DNA of 64,000 bases from Dictyostelium discoideum. Taxonomy: Eukaryota. Under the pieces are notes generated by a model, which did no database searches, was not told the origin of the DNA, and saw only the letters and a list, made by a program, of their open reading frames with translations. Positions 52,254 to 53,485 of the stretch are shown here, piece by piece (position 1 is the stretch's first letter; each line of letters starts with the position of its first letter). The translations under genes were made by a program, and so were the position numbers. Location of the stretch: positions 768,001 through 832,000 of the forward strand of contig CM000151.3 of assembly GCA_000004695.1 (NCBI GenBank), given 5' to 3'.

Positions 52254-53485
52254 TCAGTTTTCTCCACTTGAACTAGAACTGCTTGAGCTAGAACTGCTTG
52301 AGCTTGAACTTGATGAGCTGCTTGAGCTTGATGATGATGATGATGATGATGATGATGATGATGATGATGATGATGATGATGATGATGATGATGATGATGA
52401 TGATGATGATGATGATGATGATGATGATGATGATGATGATGATGATGATGATGATGATGATGATGATGATGATGATGATGATGATGATGATGATGATGAT
52501 GATGATGATGATGATGATGATGATGATGATGATGATGAGCTGCTTGATGAAGAGCTTGAGCTTGATGAGGAGCTTGAGCTTGAGCTTGAGCTTGATGAAG
52601 AGCTTGAGCTTGAGGAGCTTGATGAACTGCTTGAGCTTGAGGAGCTTGATGAACTGCTTGATGAACTGCTTGAGCTTGAGGAGCTTGATGAACTGCTTGA
52701 GCTTGAGGAGCTTGAGCTTGATGAAGAGCTTGAACTAGATGAGCTACTTGAACTTGATGAAGAGCTTGAGCTGCTTGAGCTTGATGAAGAGCTTGAGCTA
52801 CTTGAGCTTGATGAAGAGCTTGAAGATGATGAACTTGAGCTGCTTGATGATGATGATGATGAGCTGCTTGATGAGCTTGAGCTGCTTGATGATGAGCTTG
52901 AGCTTGAGCTACTTGATGATGAGCTTGAGCTTGAGCTGCTTGATGATGATGAGCTTGAGCTGCTTGATGATGATGAGCTTGAGCTGCTTGATGATGATGA
53001 TGATGATGATGATGATGATGATGATGATGAACTGCTTGAAGAGCTTGAGCTGCTTGATGAAGAGCTTGAACTGCTTGAAGAAGAACTTGAACTGCTTGAT
53101 GAAGAGCTGCTTGAACTAGAACTGCTTGAGCTGGAACTAGAACTGCTTGAACTAGAACTGCTTGAGCTTGAACTAGAACTGCTGGTATCTAAAATATTTA
53201 AAAATGAAGCAACACCCAAATCTCCTACTTCTGCCATCTTATTAGTTCTAATAATAACAAAAAAAAAAAAAAAATTTGTTAGACTATATACATCTATACA
53301 TTATATTATATAAAGTAAATAATTTTTAATTAATTAATTAATTAACACACTTACTTTTCTAATTGATATATATCTCTTTGTGGTTCTTCATTTGTTATTT
53401 CAACACTCTTTCTATAAGGTGTGACTATACTTGGAAGAACCAATAAAAAACTTATTAATACAATAAAAAACCATTTAGAGTCCAT
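52254..53485 (-). CDS. secreted protein with an extreme poly-serine tract (~300 consecutive Ser); exons ~53355..53485 (signal peptide) and 52254..53247
   Basis: Exon 1 is MDSKWFFIVLISFLLVLPSIVTPYRKSVEITNEEPQRDIYQLE. It ends GAA AA|gtaagt. The first downstream AG (ttattattag) is phase-compatible. Exon 2 reads KTNKMAEVGDLGVASFLNILDT followed by ~300 Ser ...GEN*. The Ser codons are mixed (TCA, AGC, AGT, TCT) rather than a pure slippage repeat. The plus strand shows (GAT)n. Confidence 0.6.
52328..53028. repeat. (GAT)n on the plus strand, equivalent to (TCA)n Ser codons on the minus strand, with AGC/AGT/TCT-interrupted flanks; coding poly-Ser repeat
   Basis: Long gatgatgat runs (52328..52530 and 52985..53028) are separated by gagctgcttga-type variants. 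The minus-strand frame stays open as Ser throughout. Confidence 0.9.

Follow-up and report, generated by a model that had tools for sequence, protein, structure and literature searches.

An uninterrupted, codon-mixed polyserine tract in a two-exon gene of Dictyostelium discoideum with a signal-peptide-like N terminus

Dictyostelium amino-acid homopolymers, or coding triplet microsatellites, were reportedly treated by Eichinger in 2005. Two published studies leave the function of long homopolymers in Dictyostelium explicitly unresolved, and most of the evidence in them favours near-neutral 'junk' (Scala 2012, PMC3460934; Sucgang 2011, PMC3188802). For uninterrupted Ser, the longest run of the D. 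discoideum proteome has 306 residues (HRaP database, PMC3965023), and one gene, DDB_G0271670, has been described as 'similar to Leishmania major Ppg3' (Sucgang 2011 Table S5, PMC3188802). Here we analyze a 64,000-nucleotide stretch of D. discoideum DNA (contig CM000151.3, positions 768,001 to 832,000; hereafter the window, in whose positions coordinates are given unless another locus is named) and, within it, a two-exon minus-strand gene at 52254..53485. Its spliced product of 374 residues consists of a hydrophobic N terminus, about 45 more residues, 306 uninterrupted Ser and a final GEN. The length of this tract equals the published proteome record (PMC3965023), and the tract lies at the extreme of the known Dictyostelium homopolymer distribution.

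Our overall reading, to which we assign a probability of about 0.6, is that the locus is a genuine gene whose pure poly-Ser is selected and whose product is a secreted glycan scaffold. The part of this reading that concerns the gene itself and selection on its protein we consider highly probable.

The polyserine gene and its relatives

The unspliced open reading frame (ORF) of the second exon (52254..53237, minus strand, 327 residues) reads MAEVGDLGVASFLNILDT followed by 306 consecutive Ser, GEN and a stop codon. Upstream of it lies a 44-codon ORF (53485..53351) with a hydrophobic segment at its start, and both ORFs are joined in frame by a GTAAGT donor (53354) and a TTATTAG acceptor whose last base is 53248. 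The initial annotation of this DNA had described a minus-strand ORF with about 300 Ser and then GEN, plausibly preceded by a spliced signal-peptide exon with a junction at 53355/53247; the tract was indeed found, at 52266..53183, and so was an in-frame GT-AG intron exactly at that junction. The same spliced model is called by an independent public annotation of the near-identical assembly GCA_054883475.1 (364 residues). In addition, two intronless homologues from metagenomes, L014 and L015 (described below), encode the N terminus and the Ser tract without a break in a single ORF. Hence the upstream hydrophobic exon, as had been proposed, belongs to the gene, and we conclude that the polyserine locus is a genuine protein-coding gene. 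Its features, all on the minus strand, are as follows.

53355..53485, minus strand: exon 1, 131 nucleotides, ending in phase 2; reads MDSKWFFIVLISFLLVLPSIVTPYRKSVEITNEEPQRDIYQLEK
53355..53485, minus strand: coding content of exon 1, MDSKWFFIVLISFLLVLPSIVTPYRKSVEITNEEPQRDIYQLE plus two nucleotides of the K44 codon
53429..53485, minus strand: signal-peptide-like segment, residues 1-19, with n-region MDSK and hydrophobic core WFFIVLISFLLVLP
53369..53413, minus strand: conserved motif of the putative mature N terminus, R25-x-x-V-x-I-x-N-E-E-P-x-x-x-I39
53248..53354, minus strand: intron, 107 nucleotides, GTAAGT...TTATTAG, 12% GC
53184..53247, minus strand: start of exon 2, variable linker; final base of the K44 codon, then TNKMAEVGDLGVASFLNILDT
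52266..53183, minus strand: Ser tract, 306 codons, five synonymous codons, 42% GC
52989..53030, minus strand: second pure block, (TCA)14
52329..52538, minus strand: pure (TCA)70 microsatellite block, the length-polymorphic part of the tract
52254..52265, minus strand: C terminus, Gly-Glu-Asn and a TGA stop

Syntenic regions were fetched from nine further public assemblies (three more of D. discoideum, two of D. cf. discoideum, two of D. citrinum, and one each of D. dimigraforme and D. firmibasis), anchored on orthologues of the neighbouring ZIP transporter gene. Introns in the orthologues were accepted if they had a GTAAG donor and gave the annotated product length. A two-exon polyserine gene convergent with the ZIP gene was present in 9/9 of these assemblies, giving 10 copies in five or more species. 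Their Ser runs (306, 296, 290, 274, 267, 258, 283, 298, 299 and 302 residues) are all uninterrupted, with no non-Ser codon among 2,873. The protein encoded by exon 1 is 100% identical in 10/10 copies; its six variable nucleotide sites are all synonymous third positions. The position and phase of the intron are likewise shared by 10/10 copies, with lengths of 76-124 nucleotides, and the protein ends in GEN, or in GDN in D. citrinum. Between species, aligned positions of the intron and flanks show only 70-92% identity, with many indels, and the linker of about 20 residues shows amino-acid replacements and an indel.

Public gene models at the two D. cf. discoideum loci (L010 7768..8885 and L011 7836..8914; 328 and 325 residues) take an acceptor AG that falls within the Ser tract. 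Spliced at the homologous position, these genes yield products of 336 and 327 residues with the conserved linker. The public models are probably an annotation artefact, AGC and AGT codons creating many false acceptors.

More distant relatives were sought with HMMER, using the N-terminal 70 residues against 1.84 billion representatives. Four weak matches were obtained, one of which (P0042, 49 residues) led to a true homologue: it corresponds to exon 1 of a gene on an ENA metagenome scaffold (L013, 33.5% GC), where a GTAAAC..TTTAG intron of the same phase is followed by 165 pure Ser, GDN and a stop. Scanning JGI metagenomes with the alignment of N termini gave the two intronless homologues. L014 carries 363 pure Ser and ends in GI, with 73% identity over exon 1 and 60% over the N-terminal region; L015 carries 249 pure Ser and ends in GF, with 51% and 41% identity over the same segments. 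Over the N-terminal region, the three metagenomic homologues are 41-60% identical to the window protein. Positions invariant in the N-terminal alignment of all homologues are M1, F6, LLVLP (14-18), R25, V28, I30, NEEP (32-35) and I39. Altogether, the Ser tracts of the 13 copies span 165-363 residues and comprise 3,650 codons, 0 of them non-Ser, and Gly directly follows the last Ser in each copy. Searches of Pfam-A with the window protein, L014 and L015 gave no family below E = 0.1. Tentatively, these sequences form a small family, seemingly undescribed before, that covers the D. discoideum species complex and at least three soil or metagenome eukaryotes.

Two further observations came from these searches. 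A paladin-like gene lies beside the L013 homologue, and its matches (only 28-31%) are to green algae. Another protein, P0040 (491 residues), is built of five tandem units, in each of which a hydrophobic segment is combined with a charged stretch and MAGALAVEKLYNALK; P0040 resembles the N-terminal 70 residues of the polyserine protein with E = 4e-5 and 28% identity. Judged on sequence, P0040 may be a distant relative that lacks poly-Ser, or a chance match.

Selection on the serine frame

The tract in the window is encoded by 180 TCA, 74 AGC, 27 AGT, 19 TCT and 6 TCC codons. The (TCA)70 block, which the initial annotation had placed centrally, lies close to the C-terminal limit of the tract, preceded by 215 mixed codons and followed by 21; (TCA)70 and (TCA)14 together account for 84/306 codons. 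The mixture of codons flanking the block had been recognized correctly, but their order is not simply irregular, since Tandem Repeats Finder detects higher-order periods of 18, 27, 39, 63 and 66 nucleotides in the mixed part. Besides the Ser frame, two of the remaining five frames run open through the tract, one giving His/Ala/Gln on the same strand and the other Asp/Leu/Glu on the plus strand, so openness alone has no power to pick the coding frame. The coding frame is identified by homopolymer purity: five different codons are used, and all 306 positions specify Ser. What the two other open frames would encode is unconserved between copies, the codon order differing. Plus-strand poly-Met and poly-Asp ORFs, already suspected to be spurious, were rejected as products: they depend on the (TCA)n block, the longest pure version of which ranges from 70 units down to 3 among the orthologues, and so they are not conserved.

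The DNA of the tract varies extensively. Pairs of alleles are separated by 10-38 indel events, except for a single event between the two near-identical assemblies, the window and GCA_054883475.1: their sole difference in the tract is (TCA)70 versus (TCA)60, the other codon order being identical, which provides the repeat-length polymorphism that had been proposed as a check. Diverged pairs, even within D. discoideum, differ by 4-22 single-nucleotide substitutions, all synonymous. If single-nucleotide substitutions fell at random in the tract, about 26% would be synonymous (1/3 for TCN codons, 1/9 for AGY codons). For two D. discoideum alleles, 11/11 single-nucleotide differences are synonymous (p ~4e-7), a count of independent events that is approximate because codon strings align imperfectly in repeats. 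In exon 1, 6/6 variable sites are synonymous, compared with 25/132 sites at which changes are synonymous (p ~5e-5). The 70-92% identity of intron and flanks indicates that the genomes had time to diverge, and the linker beside the tract, which accepts replacements, serves as an internal control.

Other homopolymers in the window behave differently. A 38-residue poly-N of an EMC10-like gene (window about 47719..49002, minus strand; L001 12982..14265) is found in the AX4-like sequence but not in the other strains of D. discoideum or in most species. In the F-BAR/SH3 gene (44738..46339), the length of poly-Q varies from 0 to 15 residues among the same genomes.

These data bear on the simplest alternative, namely that the tract is an ordinary coding microsatellite, subject to near-neutral slippage in a minor, fast-evolving orphan gene in which only frameshifts and stops are selected against. 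Thousands of such tracts exist in D. discoideum, the (TCA)70 block is perfect and of unequal length in two near-identical assemblies, and the mixed part has minisatellite-like periods. Yet such drift would have to leave 0/3,650 missense codons across 13 copies despite abundant synonymous changes and indels, while neighbouring homopolymers come and go and the adjacent linker takes replacements. One orthologue reaches 267 Ser although its pure blocks are at most 3 codons long, and the metagenomic homologues lack a microsatellite; L013 and L015 have their Ser codons in thoroughly scrambled order (L015: AGC 101, TCA 55, TCT 53, TCC 24, TCG 15, AGT 1). Neither the single-codon makeup nor the unconserved position, purity and length of a neutral coding microsatellite was found here. 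The comparative data contradict this explanation, which we regard as very improbable. The earlier suggestion that the mixed codons reflect protein-level constraint is supported by the 13 copies.

Codon usage in the tract has its own peculiarities. AGC makes up 24% of the tract Ser codons compared with 1.8% in 14 other long ORFs of the window (about 13-fold); it is far above AGT in all 13 homologues, opposite to the AT bias of these genomes, and AGY codons constitute 33-45% of the tract of each homologue. Interrupted repeats resist slippage in other systems. The AGC enrichment could reflect decoding shared by two tRNA families, or interruptions that stabilize the array against slippage; both are possible. 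The predicted mRNA fold is also more stable for the native codon order than for shuffled orders of the same codons (z = -2.1 to -7.2; 30 shuffles for each of the tracts of the window, L010, L002, L013, L014 and L015), which may be selected or a by-product of AGCU self-complementarity and block structure.

The stable folds, the excess of AGC and the two additional open frames could also be taken to mean that mRNA or DNA structure, or a plus-strand product, is what is constrained, with the Ser frame incidental. This is most unlikely: species differ in nucleotide order but share 100% of the Ser sequence, the other frames encode entirely different products from copy to copy, exon 1 has only synonymous changes, and all indels keep the frame to the conserved G-x-(x)-stop end.

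We conclude from the sequence comparisons that purifying selection on the Ser frame, specifically against any non-Ser residue, is well supported. Stabilizing selection on total length (258-306 residues in the named species, 165-363 overall) is suggestive. Tract DNA turns over fast, by (TCA)n slippage, by gain and loss of units of 18-66 nucleotides and by synonymous changes, and purifying selection removes non-Ser residues, frameshifts and stops from the tract.

N terminus and proposed fate of the product

The Kyte-Doolittle maximum of the window protein is 2.7 over 17 residues from residue 6. By eye and by hydropathy, MDSK followed by WFFIVLISFLLVLP and S/A resembles a cleavable signal peptide, with a hydrophobic core of 14-17 residues that ends in Pro; all homologues share LLVLP unchanged, and the residue at the putative -1 position is A or S. 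We infer that the hydrophobic segment is a signal peptide, with putative cleavage after LPS. A glycosylphosphatidylinositol anchor was considered and rejected, because the protein ends in ...SSSSGEN-stop with no hydrophobic tail, and the homologues likewise end in GDN, GI or GF.

Ser-rich secretory domains of Dictyostelium carry O-linked alpha-N-acetylglucosamine (O-alpha-GlcNAc), fucose (Fuc) and GlcNAc-1-phosphate (GlcNAc-1-P), as in SP96 and cprG, and a glycophosphotransferase-like gene family is present. The pre-protein comprises a signal-peptide-like head, the R..V.I.NEEP...I motif, a linker of 10-30 residues, poly-Ser amounting to about 80% of the protein, and Gly with 1-2 further residues. 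By analogy, the polypeptide would enter the secretory pathway, where some 300 residues of bare poly-Ser would present the densest acceptor array for Golgi O-glycosylation or phosphoglycosylation. The systems that might act on it are the GT60 polypeptide alpha-GlcNAc transferase, fucose addition and transfer of GlcNAc-1-P to Ser. Modification would yield an extended, highly hydrated bottle-brush, probably anionic, which would amount to a minimal mucin or proteophosphoglycan core, and the conserved head may serve in sorting, processing or docking. On this glycan-scaffold view any non-Ser residue would break the acceptor array, which would explain selection for purity. The whole chain from secretion to glycan brush is tentative, at rather less than even odds. 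Taken jointly, the proposal that the functional 'domain' is a perfect poly-Ser kept pure, with length and codon choice (AGY:TCN about 1:2) perhaps tuned, in a secreted mucin or phosphoglycan core, comes close to even odds but falls just short of them.

The same N-terminal data admit another topology, in which the segment is an uncleaved membrane anchor. The poly-Ser would then be a lumenal or surface brush, or else a cytosol-facing substrate of the nucleocytoplasmic Spy O-fucosyltransferase, of kinases or of pyrophosphorylation. The hydrophobic stretch is 17 residues long, and LLVLP is invariant even at 41-55% N-terminal identity, stricter than in a generic signal peptide. For a cytosolic tract, O-Fuc in protists and Dictyostelium is enriched on homopolymeric disordered Ser/Thr, and Spy prefers homopolymeric Ser/Thr; there is also a literature on poly-Ser and inositol-pyrophosphate-driven pyrophosphorylation. 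However, a stretch of 17 residues that has a Pro close to its end and S/A after it is more typical of a cleaved signal peptide than of a transmembrane helix, and the flanking charges give no clear positive-inside signal. We consider an uncleaved anchor unlikely, and retain a secreted glycan scaffold as the preferred reading.

Locus identity, weight of the evidence and known systems

The ZIP transporter gene (50432..51690) lies immediately convergent with the polyserine gene, and its product matches AX4 XP_645494.1; an ATP-dependent PEPCK gene is found at 42263..43771. In the literature, DDB_G0271672 is the ZIP transporter zplB and DDB_G0271678 is pckA. These neighbours, together with the 306-Ser record and the Ppg3-like description, lead us to assign the locus, almost certainly, to DDB_G0271670 on D. 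discoideum chromosome 2. Presumably this is the gene behind the Swiss-Prot entry 'Uncharacterized protein DDB_G0271670'. The locus is thus already catalogued and its run length published, so it is not a discovery; in the searchable literature it is uncharacterized.

DDB_G0271670 is among the 8,040 genes over the expression threshold in both RNA sequencing (RNA-seq) series of Rosengarten et al. 2015, and it is not in the differentially expressed gene list of that study, as would fit a transcript level that is modest and fairly constant. It was not found among the entries listed in the tables of the cell-type RNA-seq paper. 'Uncharacterized protein DDB_G0271670-like' is an automated label on Ser-rich proteins of whitefly, bumble bee, soybean and nematode; these labels reflect compositional matching, not homology. 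A word-indexed homology search with the N-terminal 68 residues returned no candidates from a collection that seemingly does not hold this low-complexity protein.

The window has 22% GC and long homopolymer runs, and its other neighbouring genes, like ZIP and PEPCK typical of Dictyostelium, encode ComC-type supersandwich and F-BAR/SH3 proteins. Between the polyserine gene and a divergent SAPS-domain gene lies a gap of about 3.9 kb (53486..57353, 11-23% GC), and a gap of similar size is found upstream of the polyserine gene in all Dictyostelium assemblies examined. The gap in the window contains only low-complexity ORFs, none of them credible, and no tRNA or Rfam match; Rfam and tRNA scans of the whole window likewise gave no matches. 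Long AT-rich triplet arrays at 24910..25572, just upstream of and into the start of a protein-kinase ORF (25137..27785), would encode poly-N runs of 39 and 55 residues, according to the strand and frame that are read; arrays related to them occur window-wide.

Several points weigh against our reading. The distant homologues are known from metagenome scaffolds only, and the named Dictyostelium species are close (1-5 synonymous differences in exon 1 per 25 synonymous sites), so that a length near 260-306 could be partly inheritance; the length of a 0.9-kb low-complexity tract may also be mis-assembled. No orthologue or exon-1 match was found beside the ZIP gene of D. purpureum (L004), where synteny is broken; nor, as a related result, was a polyserine gene or exon-1 match found at the paralogous ZIP locus of D. 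dimigraforme (L003), where synteny is broken too, both negatives being limited to the ZIP-adjacent loci and silent on the rest of those genomes. With its 17 residues and invariant LLVLP, the hydrophobic segment could be a signal anchor instead, and glycosylation or phosphoglycosylation of the product is deduced purely by analogy. The link of the locus to DDB_G0271670 is circumstantial. The exact 374-residue sequence is absent from a collection of 15 billion proteins, which seemingly lacks this low-complexity protein, and an exact look-up of the unspliced 327-residue ORF gave no match either. Evidence at the protein level was not found, DDB_G0271670 being absent from the entries listed for the life-cycle proteome.

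What is new here, tentatively, is the comparative evidence for a conserved family with a codon-scrambled, perfect poly-Ser under purifying selection. If this is true, the gene would be a clean and genetically tractable counter-example to the idea that homopolymers in Dictyostelium are junk. It is a small, probably dispensable gene of an easily engineered haploid, and the length and purity of its tract can be edited, which would make it a testable system. At a practical level, the name DDB_G0271670 spreads to unrelated proteins by automated annotation, and gene callers mis-splice inside the tract.

Among known systems, SP96 (Fuc-GlcNAc-1-P-Ser), cprG (GlcNAc-1-P) and the modB-dependent O-alpha-GlcNAc system offer Ser-rich acceptors like the window tract, and the predicted secretory entry would be shared. 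The SP96- and cprG-type domains are, in contrast, mixtures of S/T/A/G/P on folded proteins, whereas the window protein has no folded domain and its acceptor-like tract is a perfect homopolymer. Leishmania proteophosphoglycans are secreted or surface proteins whose Ser-rich repeats carry phosphoglycans. The likeness of the window protein to PPG3 is compositional only and known from a database description; the Leishmania proteins are very large and have Ala and Pro in their repeats. In animals, phosvitin, dentin phosphophoryn and serglycin, which are phospho-Ser-rich secretory proteins or small proteoglycan cores, are, like the proposed window product, small signal-peptide proteins with Ser-based arrays for dense anionic modification, but in them Ser runs are no longer than 14 residues or take the form of DSS or SG repeats. 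The C-terminal S-G-E of the window protein resembles, on sequence, the S-x-E kinase motif and might be read as such.

Carbohydrate-active enzymes of Teredinibacter turnerae and Saccharophagus degradans are secreted and have long, nearly pure Ser stretches, somewhat like the window tract, that are regarded as extended, flexible spacers, but these linkers average about 40 residues and about 80% Ser and join two folded domains (PMC2699552). Members of the window family, unlike them, have 165-363 residues of 100% Ser and nothing to link C-terminally. A further comparison is with the Dictyostelium homopolymers themselves (Sucgang 2011, PMC3188802; Scala 2012, PMC3460934), with which the window tract shares the organism, triplet slippage, length polymorphism and a polar residue. 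Typical Dictyostelium tracts are single-codon, young, variable, unconserved between species and regarded as near-neutral, whereas the window tract is multi-codon, makes up about 80% of its protein and is pure in 13 copies. The longest Ser run of the proteome thus behaves in the opposite way, staying pure in every species and homologue despite DNA turnover and codon scrambling.

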